Part shown: in pieces, positions 14,673-57,089 of the stretch | Position numbering within the stretch: the stretch's first letter is position 1 | Layout: each line of letters opens with the position of its first letter | Source: a virus | DNA length: 57,089 nt | Direction: 5' to 3' (one strand) | IMG/VR virus record: IMGVR_UViG_3300025867_000001 | Made by a program: the position numbers and the translations under genes | The notes under the pieces: generated by a model | Seen by the model: only the letters and a program-made list of their open reading frames with translations | Told to the model about the DNA's origin: nothing | Databases searched by the model: none

Positions 14673-14752
14673 ATAATAAAGCCCCTTTCATCCAAATATA
14701 AATAGACATAATTGCTACGTCATATGCATCACCAATCCTTTATTTGAATGAT

Positions 14753-14926: not shown

Positions 14927-14946
14927 ATAGTCTCCTTTTAAAATAT

Positions 14947-14973
14947 AAAAGAGAGACCTTTTACGATCTCTCT
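14947..14973 (-). terminator. Rho-independent terminator.
   Basis: Minus strand: AGAGAGA-TCGTAAAAGG-TCTCTCT followed by TTTATATTTT. Confidence 0.6.
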
Positions 14974-14991
14974 TGTTCTCAGGTTGATTGA

Positions 14992-15276
14992 TTAAACTCG
15001 ACCTCTCAGGACGAATCCTAACGCTTTGGATGTTATGATGTCCAGCTTTTCGTGTTTCAGAATCAGTACGATACCCAGCAGATTCCCGGCGACAACTAAT
15101 ATCGTATCAGGACTTATGCTCCATGTTGGTTTCAACATTTCCGTATAAGCCTGATGACGCTTATTAAGCTCTCTCCATTCCTCATCCGAAATATCAGGAC
15201 GACTCATCCTCTCAAATACTGCATCACACTCCTCTTTAATTTTGGTTTTCGTGCTCTTATTAAATCTAAAGTTCAT
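14992..15276 (-). CDS. Small protein with a C-terminal TM segment.
   Basis: The track start 15294 lies inside the TATAATG box. ATG 15276 follows GGGAG. TM segment: ILVVAGNLLGIVLIL. Confidence 0.6.
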   Translation of the reverse strand: MNFRFNKSTKTKIKEECDAVFERMSRPDISDEEWRELNKRHQAYTEMLKPTWSISPDTILVVAGNLLGIVLILKHEKLDIITSKALGFVLRGRV

Positions 15277-15289
15277 CCTATCAACTCCC

Positions 15290-15318
15290 TTCATTATAGA
15301 GCAAGTATTATCTCCGAG
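15290..15318 (-). promoter_or_regulatory. Promoter-like motif, partial upstream match.
   Basis: Minus strand: CGGAGATAATACTTGCTCTATAATGAAGGG. Confidence 0.45.
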
Positions 15319-28300: not shown

Positions 28301-31300
28301 AAGGCCTCTACAGCCGGACCAACATTTGAGAAGTCAACGCCTACTAATAAATCTACAAAGCCAACAAAGTCCTTGCCAAAATCTGTTAATGGAGTATTCT
28401 TGCTGAATAATTTAAAGAACCCGGACCGGTTGTCAGTGATTTCGCCAATGTCACCAGCAAGAGTTGCAAAGTTCTTAAGGGCCGGAAGCATCACATCAGC
28501 CATTGTCTGGAGATTGGATGTCCCGGTACTCAATAACGTCGAGTCAATATCTCCGAATGTTGAAACAATGCCGGCAACACTTTCTGAGAATGTGGCTATA
28601 TCATTATCCCCGAAGAATTTCGAGATGTTACCGCCACTATTTGGGATGTACCTCGCAACATCGGCAAATCTCTTTAGATTAGTTGCCATTGGGAGCATGG
28701 CCTCGAGCGCTGCACTGGCGGGTTTAACATCGTTTTCGACATCAAGGCCTTCCAGATATCCAACGAAACCACTAAGCATCAATCCAAATGTGTCAATATC
28801 ATTCTCGCCAAGAAAATCCCCAAGAAAGCCACCACTATTCGGAATTTCTTTTGCCGAATTAGCAAGCGTTTTAAGATTATCTGCTATCGGAGCTAATTCG
28901 GCCAGAATATTCTTAGCATGATTGGCGGCATGTAACGACATACCTTCGCCATTGAGAGCATTGATAAAACCTTGCAGCATTCTTCCGTATATATCAATGT
29001 CATTATTACCAACGAAGTCTCCAAGGAAGCCGCCACTATTCGGGATCGTTTTAGCAGCGGTTGCTACCTTCTCGAGATTTTCCGCCATCGGTGCGAGGGC
29101 GGCTAAGATATCCGTAGCTCCATTCGCATCATCAACTGAGACTAACTTCAGAGCTTCAATAAGCCCAACCAATTGTAAACCGAATTTCTCCATTGGGGAT
29201 AGGCCAAAGTTTACAAGTCGCGATATCCCATCAAGTATCGCTGCCCCTGTAATTGCCAATACCGCAGCTGCCAAGTCACCAATTCCAGAGAAGGAACCAG
29301 GCTTTACCTCACTTAATGCTGCGGCAAACCCAGCGATTCCCTCGCCAATACCGGTTAATGTTTCTATTGCAAAGCCACCGATAAAGGCCCCGATAAACCG
29401 TCCAATACCTTCGGCAACCGAAACTAATAAGTCAATTCCATTTTGAAGAGATTCTGAGTTCTCCTTATAAAAGAGGTTAAGCAGTTCAGCGAGACCGACA
29501 AAAGCAAGAACAATAGCACCGACTGAAACAACTGCCGCGACTACACCAAGAAGAACTGGACCAATTCCGGCACCGAGGGCTGCCAAGGGTCCGCTAAGCA
29601 ACGAAATAGCGGTAACCATTACACCAATTAACGCAATACCGGCTACGAATTTCCCAAAATCTGACCACTCTATCTGCTTAAGCTTATCATTGACTAAAGA
29701 TATAGCAACGAATAAGCCAGCAGTTGCGGCAATCACTGCAGCTAAAGTCGCAAAGGCAGGTATAAGATTCATCAGTTGTTTGCCAATCTTACTCCATGAT
29801 GCTCCTGCATAATTATTCTTAATTAAGGCATTAAACGCCGCAAGCAACAAACCAATCCCTGCAACACCAGTCGCAAATTTGCCAAGGGTGTCCCAGTCCA
29901 CTGAATCAATAATTGGTGCTATATACTTTAGTGCAACAAACAAGCCAACTGTGGCCCCGATAATGGCAACCAGTGTAACAAATGCAGGTATAAGATTTTT
30001 AAGAACACTAATCTTTTGAGTCCCTGCTTGAATCAAGGAAAGAGCTTTTATTACAGCGGCGATCGATAACGCCATACCAGAAATAGCTATTGCTGCGATC
30101 GCGAGAGAGACACTGGCACTACGTAAATCTTCAGCTGGAATAGCACTTAATAAAGCTAAAGATATGGTCAAAGCCAGGATTGCGGCAACCGTCCCGATTA
30201 GGACCCCAAAGGATTTTGCATCACCACTAATTTTTCCCACTAAAGCGGTTATTAGCTCAATAGCCCCTATAAGCCCAACCATTGCCGAGATCGTCAACAA
30301 TCCCTGCTGAATCTCTTCAATCGTAAAGTTTTTAAGTATTGCAATAATGGCAGTAAAAGCGCCCATAGTAAGCGCAACCGACAAGAGTATTTTCTGAGTT
30401 TTATTCCCTCCGCCAATTCGTGCAGAGGCCGCTGTAAGGAGCTCAAGGGCTGCGATGATCCCGCCCATTTTGGCAATAACGATTAATCCATTATCAATGG
30501 CTACCCCGGCTTTTCCCATCTCGCTGATAATGGCAATCAACCCAAGCATTGCAGCCATCCCAAGCGTAATGGAAAGTATGTTCGATTTAAACTTACTTCC
30601 TCCGCCTATCCGGCCGGCAACACCAAATAAAACTTCCATGGCGGCCAATACCAAACTTATAAGAGCTAAGTTTTTGAGACCACTGGTGATTGTATCTGTT
30701 TTGACCATAGAGAGGATCTTCATTACACCAAGCATAGCCAGAATTCCAACAGATAAACTGAGAATATTCTGACTGACCTTATTACTACCGCCTATCCGAG
30801 CAGCCAAACCAAATACGATCTCAGCAGCACCCAAAAGGGCCATAATTCCTGCAAGTTTAATAACACCCAGAGCAACCTCGTCCTCACTTATCCCGGACAA
30901 TAGCTTAACTGCCGCGACAAGTAACAATATACCAGCTCCAAAACTAAGGAAACCAAGATCCAATGTCCCTGCCCCAGGGAGCATCATAAGAAGGGTTGTA
31001 AGTACTTCATAGGCGGCCAATAGTCCGCCAATCGCGGCTAAAACTTTAACCGATCTCCAGACCGTACTCTCATCAATTTTGCTAATAGTCTTGAGTGCAA
31101 GGACCAAGATACCCAGAGCCGCAGAAACGCCAATGAGATTGAGCGCTTGCGCCTTAATGTCCTGAAGTCCAAGTTTCTTTGTTAGAAATCCTCCGGTAAG
31201 ATTAATTACCTGAAGAGCCGCATAGACCCCAATAAACTCGAGTAATGCCAAGCCAAGGGTCTTCAATGCATTTTTAGCCTTATCAGCTGGTATGGTAGAT

Positions 31301-33387
31301 AAAACCCAGATACTCGCGGCTAAAGTACCAATAATAATTGCGAGATCCCGTAAAAGATTGGGTTTTGCTTTTTCAAATAGACCACTAAAACCAGATACAA
31401 TATTTTTTAATGCTTTGACTAAACCGGTGCTTGCACTAATAAATTTGCTAATTTGAACAACAAATAGTAATAGGACGCCAGCAACAACAAATTTAGTTAT
31501 TTGACTAAAATCCAGATTTTTTATTACGTCGCCGAATGATTTAAAACCAGACGTTACACTCGATAAATCAAACCCCTTGAAGAGGTCCGTGAAAGACTTA
31601 AATCCACTTTTTGCGAATGTCGCTATATTAGATCCTAAAGTCTTGAACCAACCGATTATAGTGGCTAAAGGTTTTGGCAATTTATTGGATAGCCAATCGA
31701 CTACCATTTTGATTGAGTCGACTATGCCGCCGAATACCTCGGAAGCAAAATCCCCAAGAACCTGTAAAGGGTCATCCGCCTCCCACAAGGTTTTGACGAA
31801 ATTTACAACAACACCAACGACAGACAAAATTGCATTACGTATTAAAAGCGCGGCTATCTCAACACCCAATAAGGCATATTGAAAAAAGCCACTAGATTTA
31901 ATTGCTTTATTTATTTCAACTAAGAAATCTCCCAAACCGGCAGTCGCTTCGCCTATTCCACCAACAAATGGAACAAGTACCTTTGCTGCAGTAAAAAGTG
32001 CATTTACGAAGAATTTAACAAGCTGCCAACCAATGTCGATGACTGCAAACAGACCAGCAAAAGTCCTTCGTATATTGTCGGCTGTTTTTTCTCCGATAAT
32101 TAATTTTTGGGTAAAATCGGAGAATATTTTGGTCATCTCTAGCCATTGCTCTTTTGTCCTCGGCGGAAATATTTGATCAAATGCTTGAGAAATAGGATGC
32201 AAAATACTAAGGAGGGCAACCGCTGCCTTTTGCAGTCCCTGGAACATATTAGAAATGCCGCCTTCTTCTTTAATCCAAGCGAGCATTTCATTCCGAACCT
32301 CACCACTGGCAGCAAAGATCGTATAGAGCGTCTCAGTCAGAGCAGAGAAGTTTTTCTTCGCTTCATCCAATTCCCCAAAGATAATCTCATATGTACGCAT
32401 CCATCCAGAAGATACGGCATCCTTAGTAGCACTAATAGCTTCGCCGAATGTTTTAGCAGTTTGCGCTGCCCTAAAACTTTCTTCTGCAATCTTGGAGTAT
32501 TGACCTGCCAAAGCATCCATTGCCTCGGATGCGGTATCGTAGACGCCTTCGTCAACAAGTTTATATGCTGCTTGCGAAAGCTCGGAGAACTTCCCGAATG
32601 CAGCTTCCATTACCCTAGTATCGGCCCACTTTTCTTGTAATGTGGTACCAAAGTTTCCAATATCAACAATAGTACCTTTAACCGTTTGGCCCTTTTCATT
32701 AAGAGCGCCCAACTCGATACCGGTTTCAATGAAAATCTGCTTAAGTTGTTTACCGGCTATGCCCGCCAGTTCTAAACTTTTCCAGTCTATATATTGTAGA
32801 TTACCTGAACCATAAGATTGGTTAAGATTATACATAGCCCTGCTAAATTCAGCAGCACCTTTGCCGGCAAAAGCAGTCGCATTTGCCACACCAGTAATTA
32901 AAGGAATCAGCTTCTCAACGTCACCGCCAGAGGAAGTCATTTGAGCAAGCGCAGCTGTCATATCCGTAAAGCCGTAGCTTGTTTCATCAGAAAACCACAT
33001 CAATTGGTCAAGATAGCCGTTAACTTCATCAATACTTTTGCCCGTCGCATTCATGATGGTCTGAACCGAAGCTAACTTCTGTTCATATTTAGTCCATCCC
33101 GATGCTAATTGATCAATCGTCAAGTTTTTCAGAAGTTTGGCGCCAGCATCTACGGCAGCTTCACCAATTCTCCGTAAAGCACCAATGCCAATCTGCTCTA
33201 AGGCAGAGAAAGAACTCGATAAGGAGCCAACAGATTTTTCTAGACCGTCAAAGTTCTTACCAGTTCCAGTATCTTTTAAGGCCTTACTAAATTCTTTTAA
33301 TGACGTTCCGGATTCTGCAATGCCCTTTTCAAACTTTTTATTCTCGAAGGACATTTCCACAATTCTTTGATCTATTTTATTACTCAT
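25396..33387 (-). CDS. Tape measure protein (2663 aa) with a long polytopic hydrophobic middle region.
   Basis: ATG 33387 follows GGAGGGAGG and overlaps the upstream stop (ATGA). Evidence is its size, its position after the chaperones, coiled-coil C-terminal third, and internal 65-aa repeats. Confidence 0.85.
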   Translation of the reverse strand: MSNKIDQRIVEMSFENKKFEKGIAESGTSLKEFSKALKDTGTGKNFDGLEKSVGSLSSSFSALEQIGIGALRRIGEAAVDAGAKLLKNLTIDQLASGWTKYEQKLASVQTIMNATGKSIDEVNGYLDQLMWFSDETSYGFTDMTAALAQMTSSGGDVEKLIPLITGVANATAFAGKGAAEFSRAMYNLNQSYGSGNLQYIDWKSLELAGIAGKQLKQIFIETGIELGALNEKGQTVKGTIVDIGNFGTTLQEKWADTRVMEAAFGKFSELSQAAYKLVDEGVYDTASEAMDALAGQYSKIAEESFRAAQTAKTFGEAISATKDAVSSGWMRTYEIIFGELDEAKKNFSALTETLYTIFAASGEVRNEMLAWIKEEGGISNMFQGLQKAAVALLSILHPISQAFDQIFPPRTKEQWLEMTKIFSDFTQKLIIGEKTADNIRRTFAGLFAVIDIGWQLVKFFVNALFTAAKVLVPFVGGIGEATAGLGDFLVEINKAIKSSGFFQYALLGVEIAALLIRNAILSVVGVVVNFVKTLWEADDPLQVLGDFASEVFGGIVDSIKMVVDWLSNKLPKPLATIIGWFKTLGSNIATFAKSGFKSFTDLFKGFDLSSVTSGFKSFGDVIKNLDFSQITKFVVAGVLLLFVVQISKFISASTGLVKALKNIVSGFSGLFEKAKPNLLRDLAIIIGTLAASIWVLSTIPADKAKNALKTLGLALLEFIGVYAALQVINLTGGFLTKKLGLQDIKAQALNLIGVSAALGILVLALKTISKIDESTVWRSVKVLAAIGGLLAAYEVLTTLLMMLPGAGTLDLGFLSFGAGILLLVAAVKLLSGISEDEVALGVIKLAGIMALLGAAEIVFGLAARIGGSNKVSQNILSLSVGILAMLGVMKILSMVKTDTITSGLKNLALISLVLAAMEVLFGVAGRIGGGSKFKSNILSITLGMAAMLGLIAIISEMGKAGVAIDNGLIVIAKMGGIIAALELLTAASARIGGGNKTQKILLSVALTMGAFTAIIAILKNFTIEEIQQGLLTISAMVGLIGAIELITALVGKISGDAKSFGVLIGTVAAILALTISLALLSAIPAEDLRSASVSLAIAAIAISGMALSIAAVIKALSLIQAGTQKISVLKNLIPAFVTLVAIIGATVGLFVALKYIAPIIDSVDWDTLGKFATGVAGIGLLLAAFNALIKNNYAGASWSKIGKQLMNLIPAFATLAAVIAATAGLFVAISLVNDKLKQIEWSDFGKFVAGIALIGVMVTAISLLSGPLAALGAGIGPVLLGVVAAVVSVGAIVLAFVGLAELLNLFYKENSESLQNGIDLLVSVAEGIGRFIGAFIGGFAIETLTGIGEGIAGFAAALSEVKPGSFSGIGDLAAAVLAITGAAILDGISRLVNFGLSPMEKFGLQLVGLIEALKLVSVDDANGATDILAALAPMAENLEKVATAAKTIPNSGGFLGDFVGNNDIDIYGRMLQGFINALNGEGMSLHAANHAKNILAELAPIADNLKTLANSAKEIPNSGGFLGDFLGENDIDTFGLMLSGFVGYLEGLDVENDVKPASAALEAMLPMATNLKRFADVARYIPNSGGNISKFFGDNDIATFSESVAGIVSTFGDIDSTLLSTGTSNLQTMADVMLPALKNFATLAGDIGEITDNRSGFFKLFSKNTPLTDFGKDFVGFVDLLVGVDFSNVGPAVEALGQINESFAVVGAEVMANAKKSFENNKKPYIDAIIAILTEANKAVTDNKQPIIDNIEGIAKDLPGKTETYKKKFKTLGEDLLKGLKSGIESQTEKKSLLTAIADVANSVVAKAKSIFDSSSPSKVFMTIGGWCTAGLALGITSKTKLATDAATDMALDTEKAVRDALGVHSLSDIWAKIGEWLPKSLGSGMTSVKDWLLNLAKNLGIDTSKFTLDGISETLADATNSSSLTKGIEALLEQFQSTVEDADIGSKIGDALGSAGTDIGNSIGDNIADGLADSLKDSKNVEKAEEAVESLLDKLQATLDERKFYGQLSLEEELEAYKAIRAEYAEGSEERKRIDREIYTLEKQIYEAQKQYIEDIAAAQKKAAEDRLALEKEYADAVAQVNADLQSKLADYQKAYNDTVADAYADAQQKRQAADQEYSNSYNDILKRAEDERIRAREDYANKQKEINQKLLSDIDAQNKAYEDAVKSRADAIYGAYGLFDEVKPDEEVTGEELLQNLRDQGAALSEWQQSLEALRARGVSEALIEELQKMGPSSKAQIKALLTLTDEQLDEYVSLFQGKYAFARTQAEAELVGLRESTNENIRQLISDAGTELADLETTFQSTMSNIDQQCSSDLNDLAQTYSQKLAEINSDLESKLAQAQQTLAENTQQANDEAAAKLEELKTNFDKEMTEINENLEDQLKTIKENFADTMKTVKEKSTEELDELNKVFKKKIEDINNGIDVQLDTLEENFDTTLGNVVTNTSQQMDDLVTKVESASTGFYTAGLNAAQSFATGLRDGTWYAQLAAQALANAAVAAANQALDIGSPSKIFMAMGRFVSEGFAKGITAYSSKAEDSTETMAQNIIAAMGNALAMLEGTDSEFSPVITPVVDLSVARRQFQTANDLLDSSNSYQIAQQSAKLAASTKDRQNGSVETSTVINNNFNLTGMQVRSDADIDDIAQKLYNKQQTAMRGRGLKAFSY

Positions 33388-33755
33388 AGGCCCTGAACCT
33401 CCCTCCAACATTCCTCAGCCATCTGATCGAATATTGGTTGCAAGGCAGGATTAATATAGTCGCGGCCTTGCACATATCCACCATTCTTAGTGGCATGACC
33501 ATATTGCAGTAAGATGGCTACAGGATAACCATTTTGGAAATTAGAATTAGAAAATCCAATTCCCCAATCCTCGATGGCATATGACCAAGATTCAGAAGTT
33601 AGACCGCTGTCTTTAGGAGTTGCCGATTTAAGTGCTTCGACACCTTTAGCTCCATATCTCGAGAGCGCGGTTCTAAGCCTACGACTGAGATTTTTGCTAT
33701 TGTCGAAGAATCTTTCAGCATTCTTAAAAGACCCGCGATGAGTCAATTTAACCAT
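33384..33755 (-). CDS. HK97 gp10-like small structural protein.
   Basis: 123 aa; LKSATPKDSGLTSESW...LLQYGH pattern gives weak family recognition. Confidence 0.35.
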   Translation of the reverse strand: MVKLTHRGSFKNAERFFDNSKNLSRRLRTALSRYGAKGVEALKSATPKDSGLTSESWSYAIEDWGIGFSNSNFQNGYPVAILLQYGHATKNGGYVQGRDYINPALQPIFDQMAEECWREVQGL

Positions 33756-38555: not shown

Positions 38556-40433
38556 TTAGCCCTCTATTTTCGGAATAATCTCGAGCTTCCAGTAAACAAT
38601 AGCGGAATGCGGCATAGTCAAAGCGCCAGAGCACCGAGTCTCGATGAGGTACTTATACTGGTTGAAGTCGATGTCGAAGTCGTCGAACATGGCTACATTG
38701 CCGCCTTTATCGGCACCGAGAGCATAGTCGCCCATATTAACCGAAATTCCTATAAGGCGCTTCTGGATACCCGTAGCAGATTCAGTAGCCGGAGTGACCA
38801 CCACAACCGTATTTTCCATTACCGGAACTTCAACAATCTCTTTCGCACGAAGTCCAGCGGCCAGGTCGTTTTCAGTATTATAAAGACGACGGCCCGTGCT
38901 GTCTTTTATCAGAAGCATATCGCCAGAGACGTCGGGGGTTGTGAAGAATGTCGGAACGCCGGTACCTTTATACTGCTTGCGACCAAGGATAATTTTGTCG
39001 ATAAGCTGAGCAGTTGTGGCATCTGCAGCAATTTCAACCGGAACAGCATAAAGCGGATCATCCGTCGCAATAGGACGAACTTTGTCCTCTTTTATCTTAT
39101 CGTCCGATGAGGGATCGCGGCCGTCGCTGACCAACTGTGCCCGAGCAATTTCCTCTTCGAGCATCATCCGCATCTCGGCGCGAAGCCAAACGACGACATC
39201 AAAATCGGTTATGTCAATAATGTCATCGCGATCCAGCTTCTGTTTCTTGTATATGGTCTGAGGATCGGTGGTTCTCTTAAGAAGGGTGATTACCTCTTCC
39301 TTTTTACGATTGCCGGTTATGTAACCACGCGCACGAGCCTCGTCGGCCGTTATGTCTGCAAGAAGGGTCTTAATGCGGGAGAAAGGCACATGCTTTGCTC
39401 CGCCGAAAACTTTGGAAACCCATTCAGTATCTCTTTTTATGAATGCCGGAGTCGAAGATAATGTTCTGTAATCCGGGAAGAGATAACCAATGTTCTCGAT
39501 TCCATAGGGTTCGGGCGCGTCATCATGCTTTAAAGACTTCGCAGGCGCGTAACCCTCATAGGCTACATAAGCATCTGCAATGGTCTCATAGCCGTGAGCC
39601 AGGAATGCATTTTTTAAAGTGGACTGGGACTGACGAGCCTCCGTAAAGATAGTACGAAGTTCATCGCGAGTAAGGGCCCCCGACTTAGGAGCATCGGTGT
39701 TCCCTTTGTCAAAAACATTTTTCTTCATGCTTGATTCTCCTTCAATATTAGTATGTGTAACATTTGTGTCATCGTTCGCCTCGAGAGCATTTGATATAAG
39801 GGCATATACTACTGTTTTCTGTTTGTCCGTCAGTGTATCAAAAACGTCGCCGAGCGTTTCGTCTTCGGGTGTTTTTGCAGCAGCATGACTAACCGGTTTA
39901 TCTTCAGTAACAGTAGTAGCAACAGGAGGAGTCTCGACCTTGTCGGGCTCAGGAAGTTCGACGGAATCATTTAAAAACGCTCCAGCACAAATAATAGCTT
40001 CGGTCTCATCCGTTGCGATTGACCCATCACTATGCTCAAATGCCAGATTGTCAATGTACGCCTCGGGATTGGCGCCGGCGATTACCAACGAAACTTCGCA
40101 AATAACCCCATGGATCACATTTTTGGATTTCTCGACCAATGAGTTTGCATAAATACTCAGTGCCGAAATATCTCCATGCTGAACCAAAGCCTTTGCCGTC
40201 TTCCCGGAATCCGTATCATTTAATGAGCAATACGCGTATACGCCATCTTTTCTGTTTTCAAGCGTTGCGTGCCCAAGAATATTCTTTGGATCCTTATGCA
40301 TGTGCTGATAAACAAGCGGAACGGTTTTTCCGTCACTATCCTGGAATGCATCCTGGAGGATTGTTCGGCCATCCGAACATTTTAAACCGACTTTAGTAGC
40401 ATACCCACTAAAATCAAACTTTTTATCTTTCAT
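38556..40433 (-). CDS. Prohead serine protease (HK97/S78-like) fused in frame to an HK97-fold major capsid protein.
   Basis: N-terminal part: VPLVYQHMHKDPKNILGH...ISALSIYAN...CEVSLVIAGANPEAYI. The C-terminal ~390 aa are capsid-like. An internal in-frame ATG 39728 follows GAAGGAGAA. Confidence 0.7.
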   Translation of the reverse strand: MKDKKFDFSGYATKVGLKCSDGRTILQDAFQDSDGKTVPLVYQHMHKDPKNILGHATLENRKDGVYAYCSLNDTDSGKTAKALVQHGDISALSIYANSLVEKSKNVIHGVICEVSLVIAGANPEAYIDNLAFEHSDGSIATDETEAIICAGAFLNDSVELPEPDKVETPPVATTVTEDKPVSHAAAKTPEDETLGDVFDTLTDKQKTVVYALISNALEANDDTNVTHTNIEGESSMKKNVFDKGNTDAPKSGALTRDELRTIFTEARQSQSTLKNAFLAHGYETIADAYVAYEGYAPAKSLKHDDAPEPYGIENIGYLFPDYRTLSSTPAFIKRDTEWVSKVFGGAKHVPFSRIKTLLADITADEARARGYITGNRKKEEVITLLKRTTDPQTIYKKQKLDRDDIIDITDFDVVVWLRAEMRMMLEEEIARAQLVSDGRDPSSDDKIKEDKVRPIATDDPLYAVPVEIAADATTAQLIDKIILGRKQYKGTGVPTFFTTPDVSGDMLLIKDSTGRRLYNTENDLAAGLRAKEIVEVPVMENTVVVVTPATESATGIQKRLIGISVNMGDYALGADKGGNVAMFDDFDIDFNQYKYLIETRCSGALTMPHSAIVYWKLEIIPKIEG

Positions 40434-41667
40434 CTGTGTTCTCTCCTTCGTCTTTAATGGTAGACTGTTTCTTGGGTGTGTACTCCGGCATATTTCGATT
40501 CCCTAGCTCATCGGCTTGCTTCTCGGAGCTGGGTTTAATACCTATGACTTGCCTAAGTTCATTCGGTGTCAATATTGCATTCCGACTAAGCGCATCGGCT
40601 ATCTCGGCCATTTCGGTAACCGGAGTTAACCGGAACATGTCACGGAAGCCCATAATTGTATGCCCTTGACTCCTGGCGGTCTTCGTCAAAAATTTGCGAC
40701 GAAATTCTTCAATAATCACGGTAACGATAGGCTCAATCGTTCGGTCATAGTAATTCCGAAGGGCCTGCGCAGTTGCCTTACCAGTAAAAATATCTTCGGT
40801 TATCCCTAACTGGTTGTATAGCATTTGCGTTAAATATTGAACCTGCGCTAACAAGTTATTTTCGCTCGGCCGATTCAGCTGAGTGATTCTCTCAGTACCA
40901 TCTGTATAGGCGATTCCATAACGAGAACCTTTTAACTGGCTCTCAATAGCTTTGCGCCGTTCCTCCGCCTGTTTTTGACGGGCCTCAGATTTGATAACAT
41001 AAGGTAACTGAATAATCAAGTCTAGTTTGCCAGAGCTTGACTGCTCATCGACTGCGTCCAGCATATTCAGTTTCCTGATCAAACGCTGTAAAGTCGAATT
41101 TGGTTCATTCATTATTGCATACAATGGGTTTTCAATAATGGCGACCATTACTTTTGGAACAATTATCTGTTCACGGTGCCCTATTTGATCGTTGTATAAT
41201 TCAACGCGGATATGGTTCGGATACCATTCCACAATTTTGCCAACACGCATTGAATCAATAGTATAGCTTCCGCTTAGTAACGGAGAAATATCAGTCTCAA
41301 CAGGAACAACCGCGACACATCCCTCATCAAACATACTCATGCAAATATCTTGTATGAATACGCGTCCGGTCTGGTCCTTATTCGCTTCAACCGTCATCCG
41401 CTGATTTAAGGAATCATTAACTGTCTCAGAATAACGACCATTACCATCTATTTTGACATGATATATGTCAAAACTCGCAACATCGAGTGCCATTCGATTA
41501 TATACGCTTGTAATGATTGAGCGTTCGTTTCCGCGGGAGAATCGAGGGTACATCGGAGACACACTAGACCCATATCCCAAGTCTTTGTATGAATACCCGT
41601 CAGTCTCATCTCGCGCCCGGAACGCACTCCAGGCGTGTTTTATTCGAGTTGTTAAAGTTTCAGCCAT
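40423..41667 (-). CDS. Portal protein.
   Basis: 414 aa, positioned between the terminase block and the protease-capsid gene, with an acidic C-terminal tail. Confidence 0.6.
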   Translation of the reverse strand: MAETLTTRIKHAWSAFRARDETDGYSYKDLGYGSSVSPMYPRFSRGNERSIITSVYNRMALDVASFDIYHVKIDGNGRYSETVNDSLNQRMTVEANKDQTGRVFIQDICMSMFDEGCVAVVPVETDISPLLSGSYTIDSMRVGKIVEWYPNHIRVELYNDQIGHREQIIVPKVMVAIIENPLYAIMNEPNSTLQRLIRKLNMLDAVDEQSSSGKLDLIIQLPYVIKSEARQKQAEERRKAIESQLKGSRYGIAYTDGTERITQLNRPSENNLLAQVQYLTQMLYNQLGITEDIFTGKATAQALRNYYDRTIEPIVTVIIEEFRRKFLTKTARSQGHTIMGFRDMFRLTPVTEMAEIADALSRNAILTPNELRQVIGIKPSSEKQADELGNRNMPEYTPKKQSTIKDEGENTDER

Positions 41668-41669: not shown

Positions 41670-42155
41670 TTATCCTCCACGCTCTCGCATAAGATTCTCT
41701 TGCTTATAAGCAACTTTACCAGTTTTGAATACTCCGCGTTTCAATTGGTCCATATCATAGCCGGCATCTGCAACAGCTGTATGGACGCCAATTTGTCCAC
41801 GTTTCGCCACAAATCTGAGAACCCTGCCAGATGGCGCTTTATACTTATCTGAAACTTTTTCGTTCATTAAACTTGCCAATTTGTTATTGTACTGGAGAAT
41901 CGTCTTAGATGAAATTTTTCCATTTGGCGTATACGACATATCCAATTGAGTTTGAATGAATTGATTCATATCTTTTGAAACTGTCTTTTGTACTTTGACC
42001 TTAACCTTTTCTCCTTTGGTTTCTGCCCAACGATTGTCTTTTTTATCAAGTCGAGCCTGACCTCTGGGAGTAAGACTTCCATCAGGATTTTGATACCGAC
42101 GAATACCCCATTTTTGGCCTAAGATACCGAAATGTTGGAGGACGGTTTGATTCAT
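41670..42155 (-). CDS. Hypothetical protein carrying the shared HFGILGQKWGIRRYQNPDGSLTPRG N-terminal motif (paralog set member 3).
   Basis: The motif is at aa 7-32. The gene lies between TerL and portal. Confidence 0.7.
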   Translation of the reverse strand: MNQTVLQHFGILGQKWGIRRYQNPDGSLTPRGQARLDKKDNRWAETKGEKVKVKVQKTVSKDMNQFIQTQLDMSYTPNGKISSKTILQYNNKLASLMNEKVSDKYKAPSGRVLRFVAKRGQIGVHTAVADAGYDMDQLKRGVFKTGKVAYKQENLMRERGG

Positions 42156-42167
42156 AATATGCCCTCC

Positions 42168-42806
42168 TTATTCTTTTGGCTTATCTTTTAATGCGGCGAT
42201 TAATTTATCTGTAAATATTTTTGAGACTCCAACCAATAAACCTTTTCCCGCCTCGGTAAGCCCTTGCTTTAAAATATCTTTTCCGATTTGTTTCACGAAC
42301 GATTCACCAGTCTCGGTCTCTGCCTTGGTCAAATCCCGATAGGATTTTTCCAGCTGTAATCGCTCGTTCAAGCGTTTAAGTTCAGCATTGGATAAGCCTT
42401 TAGTCGCATTACCCCTAGATATTTGGGACTCCAGATGATCCTCTGAGGGGGTTGTTTCTTCCCGCTCTCGTTTTTTACCCTCCGAGGTCCGTGTTCCATC
42501 TTTATTTTGAAACCGACGGATCCCCCATTTCTGGCCTAAAATCCCGAAATGATAAAGTTGATTAATTGGTGTTTGCGTATCGATTTCAAAAGGCTTCTCG
42601 TATGTATCCCGCTCTCCAGAATTACGTTTCATGGTCCGAATAAGATCTTGGAGTTCTCTTTCGTTTCTGAGACGCTCCGCCATTTTGTATAATTCCTTCA
42701 TAGATAGATCGGAAATTGCTTTTGATTTGTCTGGTTCCTGTTCTATCTGTGGGCCTGAAACCTCATTAGAATACTCGTCCCAATGCCGGATTAGTTTGTT
42801 TGCCAT
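42168..42806 (-). CDS. Hypothetical protein carrying the shared motif internally (paralog set member 2).
   Basis: ATG 42806 follows GAGAGGAGG. HFGILGQKWGIRRFQNKDGTRTSEG follows an ~85-aa leader. Confidence 0.7.
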   Translation of the reverse strand: MANKLIRHWDEYSNEVSGPQIEQEPDKSKAISDLSMKELYKMAERLRNERELQDLIRTMKRNSGERDTYEKPFEIDTQTPINQLYHFGILGQKWGIRRFQNKDGTRTSEGKKREREETTPSEDHLESQISRGNATKGLSNAELKRLNERLQLEKSYRDLTKAETETGESFVKQIGKDILKQGLTEAGKGLLVGVSKIFTDKLIAALKDKPKE

Positions 42807-42829
42807 ACTGGACCTCCTCTCATAGTTAT

Positions 42830-43603
42830 TCAAACCCCCTGTTTCTTTAACCATTTCTTAGCTTTTTCTAATGCCGGTATATTTAAAGAAAGCTCATAAA
42901 GAGCGGCATTATACAATCGACCATCAATTTTTTCAATAGGGGATGAAGATATCTTTAAAGATGATTTATCGAGTGCTATTACACTTGGGCGTCTTACCTC
43001 CTTAGAAGAAGCATTCAGGGAATTAAAATCCAAAGCTACATTATAACCTTCTTTTTTATATGCCGATCCAATCTTCGCTGACATATCGCGATTAGTCGCT
43101 GCCTTAGTCATAACATCCTTCGCCATCTGAGATTTTTGTGCTGGAGTGAACGAATCGTAGGGCTTGCTTTTGACAAGATTCTGAAAATACTCATCATTTT
43201 GTATTCCAGCCTTGTTTGTTATATCTATGGCTTTATCAATAGATGGAATTTTTAAAGGCTTAGTGGCTTCAAGTTCAACGGCATATGTTTGTTTATTTGA
43301 AGCGTCTGTCATGGTTACAACATAATAACTATTTTCTGACGGCAACAATGAAGCATAAGTTCTCTCGCCAATTGGAACGCTGTAGTCATCTTCATAGACT
43401 CGATAAAGGTTAGTCCCCGAATCTAATGTTACGTCTTCTTTCTGAAGCTTATCATAAACATTTAGCATCGCTTTTTCGTTTTTTAAACGCTTTCCTAATG
43501 GGGTTAACGAACCATCTTTATTTTGATACTTTCGAACTCCCCATTGCATTCCGAGAACTCCATAATGTTTAAGCTCAGAATTTAATAAAATTGTTTGATT
43601 CAA
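42830..43603 (-). CDS. Hypothetical protein carrying the shared HYGVLGMQWGVRKYQNKDGSLTPLG N-terminal motif (paralog set member 1).
   Basis: The motif is at aa 13-37. The gene is immediately downstream of terL. Confidence 0.7.
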   Translation of the reverse strand: MNQTILLNSELKHYGVLGMQWGVRKYQNKDGSLTPLGKRLKNEKAMLNVYDKLQKEDVTLDSGTNLYRVYEDDYSVPIGERTYASLLPSENSYYVVTMTDASNKQTYAVELEATKPLKIPSIDKAIDITNKAGIQNDEYFQNLVKSKPYDSFTPAQKSQMAKDVMTKAATNRDMSAKIGSAYKKEGYNVALDFNSLNASSKEVRRPSVIALDKSSLKISSSPIEKIDGRLYNAALYELSLNIPALEKAKKWLKKQGV

Positions 43604-43624: not shown

Positions 43625-45370
43625 TTATTCAAAAGCCTCCTTATTTAATTTGTATGCAACATATGCATCTAATAACGCCGAAACTGCATCGATCTTTTCC
43701 TCCCGGTGTTTCTTCAGTAATTTGCGATTGCCATTTGTGTCTTCAATGGTAACGCAATTTCCCATAGTAAAAGAAAATAAAGATTGATCAAAACGTAAAA
43801 GACGTTCCTCTGACAGTTTTTTTATCTCGCCAAGTGGAACGGACTCCGTTTTAGCCCCCTGAATAACCTTCTCCAATCCATACTCACCGTTTTCTTTTTG
43901 CCATCTATTTACAAATTCCAGGGCATTATAAGGGTCGAAGCCAAAGCATCTGACATCATATCCAGAACCCTGGATGTAACGATCTAAGTCATCGTACACG
44001 GACATCATCTCCAATATGGCTCCATCCATGATCATTAGGGAACCTTCATTAATAAATTCGTCATACTTCTGCCTCATTGCCCCGGGAAGTTTCATTAGAG
44101 TTAATTCAGAAATATAGCAACGAGTCTTAATTCCGAAAGTATCTACGCCTAATGGGAAAAGAAATGTAAACGCACAGAAGTCATCCCCCTGAGACATATC
44201 CGCGCCTAATGCGCAAGGCAGACTCCAAAAGTCTTGACGCCTGTGGACCTGCGTTTCCTCATAAGTGAAGAAGTATGTATAACCTTCCATCGGCAGCCCG
44301 AATCGCTTGGCTAAAATATCGTTCCGAGTTGAAGGGGCATTCTCCGCCCTCTCGACGTCCAATTGATACGTCTCATATGACACGGTTTTTCCTAAATTAG
44401 GGTTTGCTTTGAGCCACCTATCAGGATTGCCAACTTCTTCTACTTTATCTAACCTATAGTACCAAATCGATACGTGGGGATTAATATATCTGCCATGCAA
44501 GATGTCTAACAATTCCATCTTCATTGTATCGCCAGCACTATTACGAATTGTTCCTTCAGAACTCGTACAAAGAATTAAGTAATCATCAACCTTCGATGCG
44601 CCCTGCTCGAGAGAGCCGACAACATCCTCGCGAATATCACCACTAAGCCATTCATCGACCGTCGAGATTTTTGGTCGCAGACCCTGAAGCTTGTCAATCG
44701 TCATAGGACGAACTTCAAGCAAAGACCCAGTTAAAAAATTCTCGATTCCTTTTTTGGTGGAGGCTAATTTGACACGATTTGTTCTGCTGCCCGTTGTATT
44801 AAATATGGAGCCCTCTGTTAAAAATTGTATTAATGGACCCCGTGCCCTCGTAATTGATGTCCTAATTGGAGACATCACTTCGTCGGCCTGACGCATTGTC
44901 GGAGCGGTAGTAATTTGGTGGGTAGTGCTGGTATCAACATTTAAGAAATAGTTTTGAATACAACTATCGTACATAGATTTGGCCGAACCACGAGCTATTA
45001 TAAGATACTGTTTGTTGATCAAGCGCTTTTTAACCATTTTGTTTTCATAACGACTTGGATTATCTTCAGTCTTAGGGATAAAGATTGAACGCTCGATAAA
45101 ATAATACCACCCAAAAATTTGCTCGGCCCATATCTTAAAAGAATCAAGCAAATGCAAATCGGAGCCATCGGTCAATGTTAACTCGTTCTCACAATATTTA
45201 ACAAATCCCTCAACGGCATCCTCATCATAGAACACTCCCGGATTTCGGATAAGCTCGTCAATACGATTCATTTCTAATGATATGTATTCATTAACAGGAA
45301 TTTGCCCTCTCAACACGGCTTCACGAAATTGGCCATAATACCGTGGAGTGGCCGTGTTAGATAATGCCAA
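43625..45370 (-). CDS. terL: Terminase large subunit.
   Basis: 581 aa with a Terminase_1-like layout. It follows the HNH and TerS-like genes and precedes portal. Confidence 0.75.
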   Translation of the reverse strand: MALSNTATPRYYGQFREAVLRGQIPVNEYISLEMNRIDELIRNPGVFYDEDAVEGFVKYCENELTLTDGSDLHLLDSFKIWAEQIFGWYYFIERSIFIPKTEDNPSRYENKMVKKRLINKQYLIIARGSAKSMYDSCIQNYFLNVDTSTTHQITTAPTMRQADEVMSPIRTSITRARGPLIQFLTEGSIFNTTGSRTNRVKLASTKKGIENFLTGSLLEVRPMTIDKLQGLRPKISTVDEWLSGDIREDVVGSLEQGASKVDDYLILCTSSEGTIRNSAGDTMKMELLDILHGRYINPHVSIWYYRLDKVEEVGNPDRWLKANPNLGKTVSYETYQLDVERAENAPSTRNDILAKRFGLPMEGYTYFFTYEETQVHRRQDFWSLPCALGADMSQGDDFCAFTFLFPLGVDTFGIKTRCYISELTLMKLPGAMRQKYDEFINEGSLMIMDGAILEMMSVYDDLDRYIQGSGYDVRCFGFDPYNALEFVNRWQKENGEYGLEKVIQGAKTESVPLGEIKKLSEERLLRFDQSLFSFTMGNCVTIEDTNGNRKLLKKHREEKIDAVSALLDAYVAYKLNKEAFE

Positions 45371-46974: not shown

Positions 46975-49821
46975 CTATTTGCTTAACGCCTGGGAGATAA
47001 GAGACGTAGAAACACCCAGCATATCGGCAATCTCAGCCAACGATCGCCCTTGTTGTTGATAGATGCGGGCGCGTGCAAGTTTACTGGGAGACAAAGAAGA
47101 CTGTGCTCTCGGAGTTGCTAAATCCTGAATAGCTTTCAAGTCTGCATTATTTAAAATTTGAGATAATAAAGAATTACTAATTGCACCAGCACTGATCGCT
47201 TCCCATTCGTTAGCAGTAATCTGAATTCGTTGCTTTGATGCTCCAACACGAGTTCGCATGTCAGCCAACACTTGTCCTTTTAACTTTTTAATTTGCGATC
47301 TTTCCATATTAGGATTTGCAGCTTTCTTTGTTTCAACAATTTTATTTCCAGCTAAGTGCACCTGACGTTCGAGGGGGGCATTAGATTGCGCCACCCGGAG
47401 CTTACTTTTTAACGAGGCTACTTCAGAAGAATATGTCTGCTTCGCTGATGAAGAATAAGAAGTCATTTTGATATTGGCGCTTTCCTTACGGGCTTGATTA
47501 CCCAGGGCCTTCATATCATTGGCGTAGTTTGCATACACCAGTTCAATGGTAGCGGGGTTTTTACTGAGTAATGTACGGGCATCTTCTGTTTCATACATCT
47601 TTGTTGATTTAATCTGGGACTTAATAAACTTACCTTGGGCATTTACATATCCCTCACCTGTTGAAACCCATACCTTTTTACCAGTAGTGGTGTCAACAGA
47701 GTAGGCCCCCTTTCGAATCAGGGGGGAGTCACCAGTTTGTTCTTTGGTGAGGGCTTTTCGTTTATCGACACGTTGTTCCGAAGATGCTCTCGAAACTAAT
47801 GTTGAAGCTCCTCTTGGATTAGAAACAGTTCCTCCTTGATAGGTGGCCTTTAATTCTGCAATGCCGTTGTCAATATAGGATTGGGTATAGTTTAATTCAT
47901 GCTTCTCGGCATCAATTACAACCATGGAATGCTTAACCGCCCGAGCAATGTCATCGGGTGGTGCTCCCTTAATTGTCATGTCCGTAATTAAATTAGATAC
48001 TTTGCCCATTTCCTGTTGCTTAACCACGTTAGTAATGACGGGCATGCCTGGATACTTAGGATACGCTTTCTTGGGATCGAAGTCCTTTAATGCTACCAAT
48101 GGGGAATCAACTTTGATTAACTTAGGATTATAGGGGATAGCAATAACCGTATCCCCATCAAAGTCGGCGCCGGATAGCACCTCTGCAGTATGTGGGGTAA
48201 TACCAATAGCATCTGATGCCGTTCCTAATATTGATTTACCTTCTTTATTCCGAGTATTATTAGTAACAACCGGTAGCTCAAATGTTCCCGCATGCGGATG
48301 CCGGATCAGTACGAGCTTCTCGCCATCACGATACCTTGATGAATAACATTCATCCTCTTTCAAAGAGGTAATAGGTATAATTACATTGGACGTTTGACGA
48401 GGCATAGCGGCAGCTTTTAAATGGACCGCCTTTGAATCACAATCATCGGCAAAAGAATCAAGAAGCCGTTGTTTAACAACGGGTTGGGTAATCTTTTGAT
48501 ACTGATCAAACGTTTCCTTTTGGTCTAAGTACGACAAAGTCAATTGTTGCTTCGCTAATTCGGGGGATTGCTTTGAAAGAAACTGGCTTGATAAAGTCTT
48601 GCTCCATGTTTCCCAGCTTCCCTCAACTCCCGAATCTTGTTTCCCTGCAAACCCTACAATATTTAAAGCTGATTGCTTTTCCGTGCCATCCCGGTCTGTG
48701 TATGTAGTTTGACGGATTGTGGCACCGAACTCATTTATCTTCTGTTTGCCTTCTTTATCCAAATAAATCGCGCCTCCCTCATTATCTTCAACAGTTACAT
48801 TCATCTTCTTCATAGCACCTAGTTTGCCAACAGATGAATTTTTATTAGTATTGTAAATAATGTCAACCCCATCAGGCATGTCGTCTGAGTAAATAGCCAT
48901 ACCTTTCAGATAATGAGTGCCATCCACAGCAACTCGAACTTGGGCGTAATGTTTATCTTGCGGTAATGCAATGTCCGCCACTCCCCTACGAATCTGAACG
49001 ACACCATCCATAGAAGAGCCAGAAGGCTTATCATCATCGAACCGAACCTTAATTCTTTTTGAATCAACAGAAATGGGAGGCTTAACTGACTTATAGGTTA
49101 CGCCACCATCCGAAGACCAATCGCTAATCATACGAATGTCACCCGAATTCTTCGTCGCATGCAAATAGGCAGCGGAAACAGTTCTTTCCTCATCTGTTTT
49201 TGTGGCCCATTTTTCGGGGTACTGCTCTTTATATGCGCTTCGGGCAGTAGTTAGTGTATCGGGAGACATTAAAACACGAACGGTTGTCTTACCTGAAGTT
49301 CCTAGCTGCGGTGTTTGAATATTTGTGACCACATATCCTTCCGATTCAAGTTCGGCAATGGATACATCTAATTTTGATTTGGTCACACCAAGAAGCTGAA
49401 GATTGGATCCGGTACCAACGTCGATCATGCCTTTTTTATTTGCTTGCTCTTTAAGCATGTTCTTAGTGGCTTCGTTTACTTTGTGCCGGTCTTCTGTTTC
49501 GGGCATCAGAATCTTTTTTACTGTATTTGGAGAAACGCCAATCCTTTGCGCAATAGCGGAATCAGAATAACCCTTCGCCTTGAGCCTCACCGCCATTGCC
49601 GACTGGGCGCCATAAACGGCTTCTGATTCGGTATGAATGCGAGCCCTTAACTGAGTTGTATTCATAGCAAATGACTCGGCTATTTGCTTTTCAGACAACC
49701 CTTGTTTTTTTAATTCCGATACTTGCTGCCCAAAAGTTTTTGACCTTTGAGGCTCATCTCCAGACCCCCAAGGATATCGGCCACTGTGCCGTTTTGTACC
49801 ATAATGCATCAAAAATGCCAT
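46975..49821 (-). CDS. Two-barrel (double-psi beta-barrel) RNA polymerase-like protein with N- and C-terminal HTH domains.
   Basis: aa 302-326 THYLKGMAIYSDDMPDGVDIIYNTN is RNAP beta-like (GRHGNKGV..EDMP..DG.PVDI.LNP). aa 502-564 KLVLIRHPHAGTFELP...LSGADFDGDTVIAIPY is beta-prime-like (LNRAPTLH...NADFDGD); the DFDGD codons are at 48151-48165. HTH-like segments are at aa 38-62, 82-105 and 920-945. Confidence 0.6.
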   Translation of the reverse strand: MAFLMHYGTKRHSGRYPWGSGDEPQRSKTFGQQVSELKKQGLSEKQIAESFAMNTTQLRARIHTESEAVYGAQSAMAVRLKAKGYSDSAIAQRIGVSPNTVKKILMPETEDRHKVNEATKNMLKEQANKKGMIDVGTGSNLQLLGVTKSKLDVSIAELESEGYVVTNIQTPQLGTSGKTTVRVLMSPDTLTTARSAYKEQYPEKWATKTDEERTVSAAYLHATKNSGDIRMISDWSSDGGVTYKSVKPPISVDSKRIKVRFDDDKPSGSSMDGVVQIRRGVADIALPQDKHYAQVRVAVDGTHYLKGMAIYSDDMPDGVDIIYNTNKNSSVGKLGAMKKMNVTVEDNEGGAIYLDKEGKQKINEFGATIRQTTYTDRDGTEKQSALNIVGFAGKQDSGVEGSWETWSKTLSSQFLSKQSPELAKQQLTLSYLDQKETFDQYQKITQPVVKQRLLDSFADDCDSKAVHLKAAAMPRQTSNVIIPITSLKEDECYSSRYRDGEKLVLIRHPHAGTFELPVVTNNTRNKEGKSILGTASDAIGITPHTAEVLSGADFDGDTVIAIPYNPKLIKVDSPLVALKDFDPKKAYPKYPGMPVITNVVKQQEMGKVSNLITDMTIKGAPPDDIARAVKHSMVVIDAEKHELNYTQSYIDNGIAELKATYQGGTVSNPRGASTLVSRASSEQRVDKRKALTKEQTGDSPLIRKGAYSVDTTTGKKVWVSTGEGYVNAQGKFIKSQIKSTKMYETEDARTLLSKNPATIELVYANYANDMKALGNQARKESANIKMTSYSSSAKQTYSSEVASLKSKLRVAQSNAPLERQVHLAGNKIVETKKAANPNMERSQIKKLKGQVLADMRTRVGASKQRIQITANEWEAISAGAISNSLLSQILNNADLKAIQDLATPRAQSSLSPSKLARARIYQQQGRSLAEIADMLGVSTSLISQALSK

Positions 49822-56863: not shown

Positions 56864-57089
56864 TAAAGTGGCCACTCTTCTCGCACAAAAATCTGCATTT
56901 GGTCCCATAAATTCAGTTTTTTGAAGTTTTTCTCAACGTCCTTTACCACGAAAATTCCGCCCGTTCCGTCCTTAGAATACTTCCTCTCTAACCAGTTTTC
57001 CAACGCGTTTCCCACCGGTTCAGAGATTCCACCTAGGTAAGAATCGTCATACTGCAACACTTTTAAGTTCCCAACAAGCTTCCAAAAGA
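56863..57089 (-). CDS. C-terminal part of the junction-spanning hypothetical gene (see 1..458).
   Basis: Same frame as 1..458 once the 127-bp overlap is collapsed. Stop TAG at 56865-56863. Confidence 0.7.
   Translation of the reverse strand, partial: FWKLVGNLKVLQYDDSYLGGISEPVGNALENWLERKYSKDGTGGIFVVKDVEKNFKKLNLWDQMQIFVREEWPL
56963..57089. repeat. Terminal direct repeat copy B, identical to 1..127.
   Basis: Exact 127-bp identity with the window start. Confidence 0.95.

Follow-up and report, generated by a model that had tools for sequence, protein, structure and literature searches.

Three genes between TerL and portal share one peptide

The 57,089-nucleotide (nt) stretch of viral DNA studied here (IMG/VR record IMGVR_UViG_3300025867_000001; the window throughout) encodes, on the minus strand and between the genes for the large terminase (TerL) and the portal protein, three small proteins that share a peptide of 25–30 amino acids (aa), which corresponds to the Pfam family DUF7211. 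A variant of this peptide stands at the N-terminus of a candidate RNA polymerase of the same genome. The cassette is bounded upstream by TerL (43625..45370, minus strand; Pfam TerL_nuclease, 3.5e-31, and TerL_ATPase; PHROG 9) and downstream by the portal gene (40423..41667, minus strand; Pfam Phage_portal, 7.3e-20; PHROG 12). Next to TerL, a gene at 42830..43603 (minus strand) starts with TTG at 43603 behind the ribosome-binding site (RBS) GAGGTG and encodes a 257-aa protein, in which the N-terminal peptide (aa 8–37, LNSELKHYGVLGMQWGVRKYQNKDGSLTPLG; 43493..43582, minus strand; motif His13) is joined to a predicted folded alpha/beta cargo domain at aa ~35–250. The following gene (42168..42806, minus strand; PHROG 7021/32444) encodes 212 aa and places the motif internally, after a leader of ~80 aa (PINQLYHFGILGQKWGIRRFQNKDGTRTSEG; 42477..42569, minus strand; His86); a GAGGAGG RBS 7 nt upstream of ATG 42806 favours this start, which the original prediction, an earlier reading of this DNA, had chosen, over that of a longer open reading frame (ORF) of 228 aa. 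The last gene before the portal (41670..42155, minus strand; ATG 42155; RBS AAGGAGGG; PHROG 32444) encodes 161 aa with an N-terminal motif (QTVLQHFGILGQKWGIRRYQNPDGSLTPRG; 42057..42149, minus strand; His8).

All PHROG matches of the three small proteins are to families of 'unknown function', and an NCBIfam search with them gave no match. ORF calls and translations reproduce the coordinates first proposed for these three minus-strand frames and for that of the polymerase, and the four proteins are indeed unrelated outside the motif, the best blastp match among them having E = 0.67 once the motif is removed. Three genes at this place had been thought unusual, but this is the norm in the phage lineage described below, where 0–7 genes lie between TerL and portal in the genomes examined.

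The peptide is a near-invariant, unstructured linear motif

The shared segment follows the pattern (D/E)2-[FY]-L-x-H-[YFH]-G-[VI]-x-G-[MQ]-[KR]-W-G-[VI]-R-[RK]. It had been taken for an unnamed motif, but it is Pfam PF23847 (DUF7211), a 25-residue model to which Pfam gives no function. Against this model the 257-aa protein scores 36.3 bits (gathering cutoff 27), and most relatives also pass; the 161-aa and 212-aa proteins fall below the threshold (18.6 and 14.7 bits, respectively) yet keep all invariant residues. With our own hidden Markov model (HMM), whose seed of 31 instances from related genomes includes the three copies of the window, these copies score 47–52 bits (52.1, 47.2 and 46.9 bits for the 257-aa, 212-aa and 161-aa proteins; E ~1e-13 to 1e-15), and nothing in the rest of the window scores above 5.3 bits. 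Since the DNA coding for the motif varies at synonymous sites, selection acts on the peptide. Recent gene conversion as the source of the common motif was considered and rejected on the same synonymous differences. A literature search found no paper that mentions DUF7211 or its GMKWG core and none that ties DUF7211 to a function, and the genome papers on Arthrobacter, Rhodococcus and Gordonia phages neither mention the motif nor report virion proteomics for the lineage.

The anatomy of the peptide was derived from 321 internal copies. An acidic run at positions −9 to −4 leads into the core [FY]-L-[EA]-H-[YHF]-G-[VI]-[KL]-G-[MQ]-[KR]-W-G-[VI]-R-[RK], and the core is followed either by YQNKDGSLTxxG, mostly in members of the gut or Firmicutes type, or by variable sequence, and then by a Lys-rich stretch. 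The H, G, G, W and G of the core were fixed by the pattern with which the 321 copies were collected, but they are invariant in independent alignments as well, and the L and R of the core exceed 90%. The motif is the most conserved segment of its proteins. In an AlphaFold2 (AF2) model of the 257-aa protein, residues 1–34 have a predicted local distance difference test (pLDDT) score of 33–49 and lack secondary structure. Near-invariance combined with a lack of modelled structure and a flexible tether is what characterises linear motifs that would fold on a partner in trans.

A variant of the peptide heads a YonO-like RNA polymerase

The gene at 46975..49821 (minus strand) encodes a 948-aa candidate single-subunit, two-barrel RNA polymerase of the YonO-like type, which matches PHROG 4291 ('RNA-dependent RNA polymerase') with 1068 bits and has helix-turn-helix (HTH) domains at both ends (HTH_23 and Sigma70_r4 matches). 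The DxDGD loop typical of YonO-like two-barrel enzymes is present as DFDGD at aa 553–557 (nt 48151–48165; GADFDGD at aa 551–557) and, together with the homology to PHROG 4291, places the protein in this family with a predicted polymerase activity. Pfam RdRP gave no direct match and a PDB sequence search no relative of the protein, whereas 250 phage homologues align with 35–47% identity, ORF75 of Lactococcus phage 1706 among them (35.6%). An HTH-flanked, DxDGD-bearing YonO-like protein has been described as a signature gene of the lineage, and orthologues were linked by HHpred to the RNA-dependent RNA polymerase family PF05183 (bioRxiv 10.1101/842583).

At its N-terminus the polymerase carries a peptide (aa 3–21, FLMHYGTKRHSGRYPWGSG; 49759..49815, minus strand) that reads HYGTKRHSGRYPWGSG at aa 6–21, with the motif His at residue 6. 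The original prediction had recognised here a degenerate copy of the motif, and a variant it is, of the form L-x-HYGxxRxSGRYPWGSG. In a column-shuffle test, its Smith–Waterman score against the canonical peptide was 30.05 against a null of 13.8 ± 3.0, a value that 0 of 2000 shuffles reached (z = 5.5), and hhalign of the two profiles gave a local P = 3.8e-8 over 10 columns, in the first half of the motif. The polymerase-type peptide keeps the acidic-L-x-H-Y-G-[VTI] half and the W-G of DUF7211, with four extra residues between the kept halves and a different tail. Neither Pfam (no hit at E < 0.1) nor our own HMM calls it, and on these alignments we treat it as a specialised relative of the tag rather than as a member of the Pfam family.

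The variant is itself highly conserved. All polymerase homologues begin with (D/E)(D/E)x-L-x-HYG-[TMVI]-x-R-x-SGRYPWGSG, and the same peptide occurs in 112 of 120 metagenomic N-terminal fragments, the others comprising six single-residue variants and two truncated sequences. Within the first 230 aa no other 16-residue block is as highly conserved (91% against a mean of 54%). In phage records it was found at 250 places in 249 records, and in every match listed the polymerase gene carries it at the 5' end. An AF2 model of the polymerase N-terminus (75-sequence alignment, mean pLDDT 87.9) gives residues 1 to ~25 a pLDDT of 45–49.

Thirteen promoter-like elements of ~30 nt lie on the gene-sense (minus) strand and follow the pattern TT(T)TCGCA-N2-3-AATAACAT-N3-5-CTATAATGAGAA; their CATTATA anchors are at plus-strand coordinates 507, 4138, 4697, 5107, 5450, 11276, 13161, 13686, 15292, 16513, 16707, 17035 and 50790. 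They occur in the small-gene, non-structural region and, in one case, just upstream of the VRR-Nuc/Cas4/polymerase operon, and none was found in the 29-kb structural block. The elements have a perfect TATAAT −10 and a conserved spacer and +1 region, with no TTGACA-like −35 at 17 bp. They are candidate phage-specific promoters, which might be read by the phage polymerase or with the help of a phage factor. One similar site is present in the gut relative MT835495, and the first 30 kb of phage 1706 contain no obvious counterpart.

The peptide is confined to one lineage and one head module

Judged by its genes, the window is a siphovirus of the Lactococcus-1706/Faecalibacterium-Oengus/actinophage lineage. 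TerL, portal and polymerase have DNA or protein matches in 247–250 phage genomes of this lineage, whose members include Lactococcus 1706 and P092, Faecalibacterium FP_oengus, siphovirus contigs from gut and mouth, and actinophages (Gordonia DJ, Arthrobacter AM/AU, Streptomyces BI, Rhodococcus Pepy6/Poco6, Curtobacterium and Microbacterium phages). Koert et al. (bioRxiv 10.1101/842583) have described this lineage, and the window holds the genes that characterise their supercluster, namely TerL, portal, a protease-capsid fusion, HNH, a Cas4/RecB nuclease and the HTH-polymerase gene, in the conserved order; its gene order matches that of Artorias, 1706, Poco6, Bilo and FP_oengus. The fusion of an S78 prohead protease with the major capsid protein lies at 38556..40433 (minus strand; Peptidase_S78 at aa 7–131; PHROG 3270, 691 bits). 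Homologues in relatives are annotated 'major capsid and protease fusion protein', such fusions have been described for lineage members (PMC5513430), and the S78 protease is present in all lineage genomes examined. In linear genomes of the lineage the last gene but one at the right end encodes the polymerase, which therefore lies only a few small genes upstream of TerL on a circular map, as it does in the window.

The canonical motif was found in all lineage genomes examined, in varying number: four copies each in Artorias and Fazel, five in Scarif, seven in Poco6, eight in Pepy6, one in FP_oengus, two within one protein in Bilo and likewise in 1706, 1–8 in each of six metagenomic contigs, and three in the window. 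In these 16 genomes or contigs there are 57 canonical copies, every one of them on the TerL strand within an interval that runs from ~4 kb upstream of TerL to just past the portal, and no canonical copy occurs elsewhere in the 57-kb window or in two 30-kb loci. The richest cassette seen is that of a 16.3-kb contig, JGI 3300027904, with nine DUF7211 genes called around TerL and portal, one of which carries a Gln_amidase domain and one of which lies between the portal and the protease-capsid gene.

The original prediction had proposed a scan of phage sequences for co-occurrence of motif and polymerase, and in a collection of 50,697 phage records both fell in the same lineage. The canonical peptide (actinophage-type consensus) was present in 225 records, at 791 places, and the polymerase in 250. 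Genus counts are essentially the same for both peptides and the polymerase (Arthrobacter 95, Gordonia 55, Streptomyces 54, Curtobacterium 7, Microbacterium 4, Rhodococcus 4, Faecalibacterium 2). The Firmicutes-type consensus was found in 75 records, all from genera of the same lineage or from unannotated gut contigs. The canonical peptide also occurs in one Bifidobacterium phage record. A profile search of 1.84 billion representative sequences retrieved 45,865 clusters (50% identity) at E ≤ 1e-3, and five of five metagenomic contexts sampled from the profile matches were the same head module. A separate search with a 44-aa motif profile matched only fragments of ≤ 80 aa and served for genomic contexts rather than domain architectures.

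Tagged proteins are modular and their cargo is diverse

Whether the motif is an N-terminal tag, as the original prediction had it, depends on the protein. It is N-terminal in two of the three small window proteins, and in small proteins with annotated starts it mostly occupies residues 2–26; however, it is internal in the 212-aa protein and present in 2–5 copies in others. Internal copies occur at ~aa 350 in fusions with a LigT/2H phosphoesterase and twice in 1706 ORF7, and in Bilo gp6 two copies flank a GNAT domain. Among the 150 best-scoring of the 45,865 clusters, a sample biased towards multi-copy proteins, 2–5 copies per protein are usual, the median spacing is 210 aa and 74% begin within the first 30 aa. 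Some representatives of 500–1500 aa have 3–5 DUF7211 copies ~210 aa apart and almost no other recognisable domain. From their sequences, such proteins look like polyprotein 'trains' of cargo modules. Because the copies are regularly spaced and the proteins mostly start with one, genes with a single tag and proteins with several look like fission and fusion forms of each other.

The sequence behind the tag is highly variable. Of 187 database matches to the 257-aa protein, ~8 align beyond the motif and the rest cover 11–25% of the query. Recognisable partners of the peptide are GNAT acetyltransferases, 2H phosphoesterases (LigT) and Gln_amidase, a papain-fold deamidase. For the 257-aa protein, AF2 predicts a confident alpha/beta cargo domain (pLDDT up to 93), and Foldseek relates the model to lineage proteins (E 1e-11 to 1e-7), to proteins annotated as 'large polyvalent protein associated domain' (8e-5) and to a segment of an N4-like virion RNA polymerase (6e-3). 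Its top fold neighbours in the PDB are all ADP-ribosyltransferase (ART) or NADase toxins (ParT, E = 0.014; Tse6, Tne2, PltA, Arr and PARP4), but no PDB match reached E ≤ 1e-3, and no conserved catalytic triad was identified in an eight-sequence alignment. The ART-like fold of the model is therefore a weak lead, which, if true, would parallel Alt of phage T4, an ART packaged in the head. Taken together, the cargo repertoire resembles that of proteins injected with phage DNA.

In three actinophages a LigT/2H-phosphoesterase gene (annotated 'RNA ligase' in some records) lies just upstream of TerL, namely Gordonia Artorias gp12 (12248–13813), Fazel gp13 (7513–9183) and ReqiPoco6 gp015 (14111–15724); each product has DUF7211 at aa ~350 and a further C-terminal module. 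A 2H enzyme carried in the virion could act on RNA ends or on cyclic-nucleotide signals.

Both motif-bearing proteins of phage 1706 are labelled structural

The group that studied the virions of phage 1706 deposited its genome in GenBank as EU081845, a record in which ORF7 and ORF75 bear the label 'structural protein' and most ORFs are 'unknown'. ORF7 (462 aa) lies directly upstream of TerL, contains two DUF7211 copies and is the only canonical-motif protein of 1706; together with ORF75, the polymerase homologue, it makes up the complete set of motif-bearing proteins of this phage. The ReqiPoco6 record repeats the label as '1706_gp75 structural protein'. Fifteen structural proteins of 1706 were reportedly identified by sodium dodecyl sulphate–polyacrylamide gel electrophoresis and liquid chromatography–tandem mass spectrometry.

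Discussion

A short peptide that is conserved, modular and predicted to be disordered, that is confined to genes beside TerL and portal, and that has been inherited together with one head module and one polymerase calls for an explanation in terms of the head. The reading that we favour, and consider reasonably probable, is that DUF7211 is a docking peptide for head incorporation, carried by cargo that is ejected into the host, a virion RNA polymerase included. As in T4-type capsid targeting, a short peptide is common to several otherwise unrelated proteins of one phage, and the tag is limited to one lineage, in which it travels with the head module and the polymerase. The earlier proposal that a shared tag marks packaged cargo and that the polymerase is virion-borne is thus the best-supported reading of the lineage restriction, the TerL/portal position and the 1706 labels, although its strictly N-terminal placement has to be given up: two of the three small window proteins and most small relatives have the peptide at the N-terminus, whereas in others it is internal or repeated.

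In the mechanism we envisage, the disordered and charge-polarised peptide, with its acidic upstream part, core and basic tail, would head each cargo module and, during procapsid assembly, bind a component inside the head machinery specific to this lineage. Its partner would most probably be the scaffold-like or protease part of the protease-capsid fusion, a candidate docking partner and/or processing enzyme, or the portal, likewise a candidate docking partner. Attached cargo, such as ART/polyvalent-domain-like proteins, GNATs, 2H phosphoesterases and glutamine deamidases, would thereby be enclosed in the head, and the YonO-like RNA polymerase might be enclosed in the same way through its specialised version of the peptide. 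The head protease may trim the tag or cut multi-module polyproteins. Upon infection, cargo would leave through the tail with the DNA, the polymerase would start phage transcription and other cargo would act on the host. Docking, its partner, processing, ejection and the roles in the host are what we infer from these patterns. In its most complete form the proposal is that DUF7211 is a portable head-loading peptide of ~25 residues, which, in a siphovirus lineage of very large extent, docks on the protease-capsid fusion or the portal, recruits an open-ended set of injected effectors and, in a specialised version, a free-standing YonO-like polymerase, with multi-copy proteins being 'cargo trains' cut by the protease; we put this forward tentatively, being slightly more inclined to doubt the whole than to accept it.

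Several observations weigh against head loading. Support from virions amounts to product labels in a single GenBank entry, and a polymerase, which binds DNA, could have been purified along with the particles. ORF71 of 1706 (1659–2012 in the locus examined), a small protein from the replication region, is also labelled structural, and no DUF7211-like peptide was found in it, which means either that there are further routes into the virion or that some of the listed proteins co-purified. The match of the polymerase peptide to DUF7211 is limited to the first half of the motif, and the two are only presumably equivalent in function; internal and repeated copies are unlike classical, strictly N-terminal capsid-targeting sequences; and co-inheritance within one monophyletic lineage amounts to a single evolutionary event. 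In front of the polymerase operon stands the promoter-like element that also occurs at ~12 non-structural sites; this does not suggest late, head-gene-like expression of the polymerase. Finally, the tape measure gene (25396–33411) encodes 2671 aa, which implies a very long tail whose length any ejected protein would have to travel, and the 108-kDa polymerase would need to unfold in order to pass it.

According to the main rival, the motif mainly serves the S78 head protease, as a signal for recognition or cleavage that marks the boundaries of polyprotein modules and pro-peptides. This would account for the copies that head each ~200-aa module in proteins with 2–5 copies and for the apparent interchangeability of single genes and fused arrays, and an S78 protease, here fused to the capsid protein, is encoded in every lineage genome examined. 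There are precedents, since the capsid-targeting sequence of T4 is removed by gp21, and head proteins of staphylococcal phage 80alpha share an L27-like N-terminal motif that is cut by a specific protease. Nevertheless, the ~20 near-invariant residues exceed what known S78/HK97-type sites need. Because a substrate of the head protease must already be inside the procapsid, cleavage presupposes targeting, and this rival overlaps with docking rather than excluding it; as the chief function of the peptide we think it fairly unlikely.

A second alternative places the action of the peptide during or after ejection, either as a signal for translocation through the portal, tail or tape-measure channel, or as a binder of a host component that localises effectors and polymerase. 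The disordered, basic tail after the W-G-x-R-R core and the conservation across phages of Firmicutes and Actinobacteria would fit such a role, and the polymerase would gain from being anchored at the DNA entry pore, as proposed for the virion polymerase of P23-45 (PMC10770324). However, a tag for a universal host target should have spread, whereas this one tracks a single head module in the 50,697 records; its placement between TerL and portal points to head assembly, and its bearers would still have to be in the virion. We therefore regard this role as distinctly unlikely. It is also conceivable that the tagged proteins are not virion components, that the peptide controls packaging by binding terminase or portal, interacts with a chaperone or a shared regulator, or serves as a degron, and that the 1706 labels reflect co-purification. 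In favour of this is that the virion evidence is an annotation label, that ORF71 shows the 1706 list not to be confined to proteins of the morphogenesis module or with the motif, and that the polymerase operon has an early-type promoter-like element. Yet it would then be a coincidence that both motif-bearing 1706 proteins are among the reportedly ~15 listed of 76 ORFs; GNAT, 2H phosphoesterase, deamidase and polyvalent-protein-like folds resemble injected effectors; and hyper-variable cargo on a constant tag is hard to square with a packaging regulator. We hold such a non-virion role to be very unlikely. What disfavours both post-ejection and non-virion roles is that the tag follows one head module and lies among genes for head assembly. 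Chance resemblance or a low-complexity artefact, which the shortness of the motif and the two window copies under the Pfam threshold might suggest, is practically excluded, having been refuted by HMM E values of 1e-13 to 1e-15, by the 45,865 representative clusters at E ≤ 1e-3, by invariant residues kept across phyla and GC contents from Lactococcus to Streptomyces, and by the synonymous variation in the coding DNA.

Head loading by DUF7211 would have relatives among known systems. In T4, a capsid-targeting sequence is said to be carried by the internal proteins IPI–III and by Alt. In both cases a short, typically N-terminal peptide is found on unrelated proteins; in T4 it loads the prohead with proteins that are ejected with the DNA, and loading is what we propose for DUF7211. 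The T4 cargo includes the ADP-ribosyltransferase Alt, and the 257-aa protein is weakly ART-like in its model. However, the two peptides are not similar in sequence, T4, a myovirus, has a separate scaffolding core and the protease gp21, and its tag is strictly N-terminal and cleaved, whereas DUF7211 is also internal or repeated and belongs to a siphovirus with a protease-capsid fusion. The C-terminal tail of the HK97 protease and the cargo-loading peptides of encapsulins are reportedly further examples of short, disordered peptides on flexible tethers that dock cargo inside an HK97-fold shell and are portable between cargos; unlike DUF7211, to whose sequence they are unrelated, they are usually C-terminal and rich in Gly or hydrophobic residues, and encapsulins do not eject their cargo. 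Polymorphic toxins anchored by MuF, and polyvalent proteins, are likewise said to join a constant virion-association module to hyper-variable effectors, with genes next to that of the portal. Multi-module arrays occur among the DUF7211 proteins, and the modelled fold of the 257-aa cargo matches 'large polyvalent protein associated domain' proteins. MuF is a folded domain of ~100 aa, whereas DUF7211 is a 25-aa peptide repeated before each module, and a search of the window proteins, of 10 proteins from the lineage and of 10 with several motif copies found no Phage_Mu_F domain.

The original prediction was unaware of virion polymerases in long-tailed phages, but they are known from phiKZ-type myoviruses (PMC7824862) and from the Thermus siphovirus P23-45 (PMC10770324), in which the enzyme is fused to the tape measure protein. 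With N4, the crAss-like virus phi14:2 (gp66), phiKZ and P23-45 (gp96), the window phage would share a phage polymerase carried in the particle for early genes, and gp66 and gp96 likewise consist of a single polypeptide with two barrels and carry a DxDGD loop. The N4 and crAss enzymes are embedded in giant proteins, that of phiKZ is multisubunit and that of P23-45 is fused to the tape measure, whereas the 948-aa enzyme considered here is free-standing, has HTH domains of its own and would owe its recruitment to an N-terminal peptide of 20 aa; presence in the virion is indicated for the 1706 homologue only.

The concept of a tag is already known from T4 internal proteins, MuF-anchored toxins and polyvalent proteins, and virion polymerases are known from podoviruses too; what would be new is the particular peptide, its scale, the repeated 'cargo train' form and the recruitment of a free-standing YonO-like polymerase by a short tag. 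If the reading holds, the peptide would represent a third way to deliver a virion polymerase, after embedding in a giant protein and fusion to the tape measure, and the 1706/actinophage lineage would have virion enzymes in its YonO-like polymerases. The loading of internal or ejected proteins is well worked out only for T4, P22/T7-type and N4/crAss-type phages, and our reading would show how siphoviruses of Gram-positive hosts do it. A function would be given to a very large domain family, which with 45,865 clusters would be among the largest families of phage-injected proteins, and hundreds of cargo domains would be flagged as candidate effectors of early host takeover or anti-defence. A ready-made short tag for loading foreign proteins into siphovirus heads could, moreover, be of use in engineered phage delivery. 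The hypothesis is directly testable, as many phages of the lineage are held in teaching collections (SEA-PHAGES Gordonia, Arthrobacter and Streptomyces phages).

Further features of the genome and its relatives

The two ends of the window (1–127 and 56963–57089) are 100% identical over 127 nt, an assembly overlap, and the window is therefore a complete genome of 56,962 bp, assembled as a circle, with all genes on a single strand. Genomes of the lineage are also embedded in two ENA contigs of 127 and 110 kb, in which the polymerase, portal and protease-capsid genes are split across frames; in the 110-kb contig nearly all called genes are tiny, and both contigs look like products of error-rich long-read assembly.

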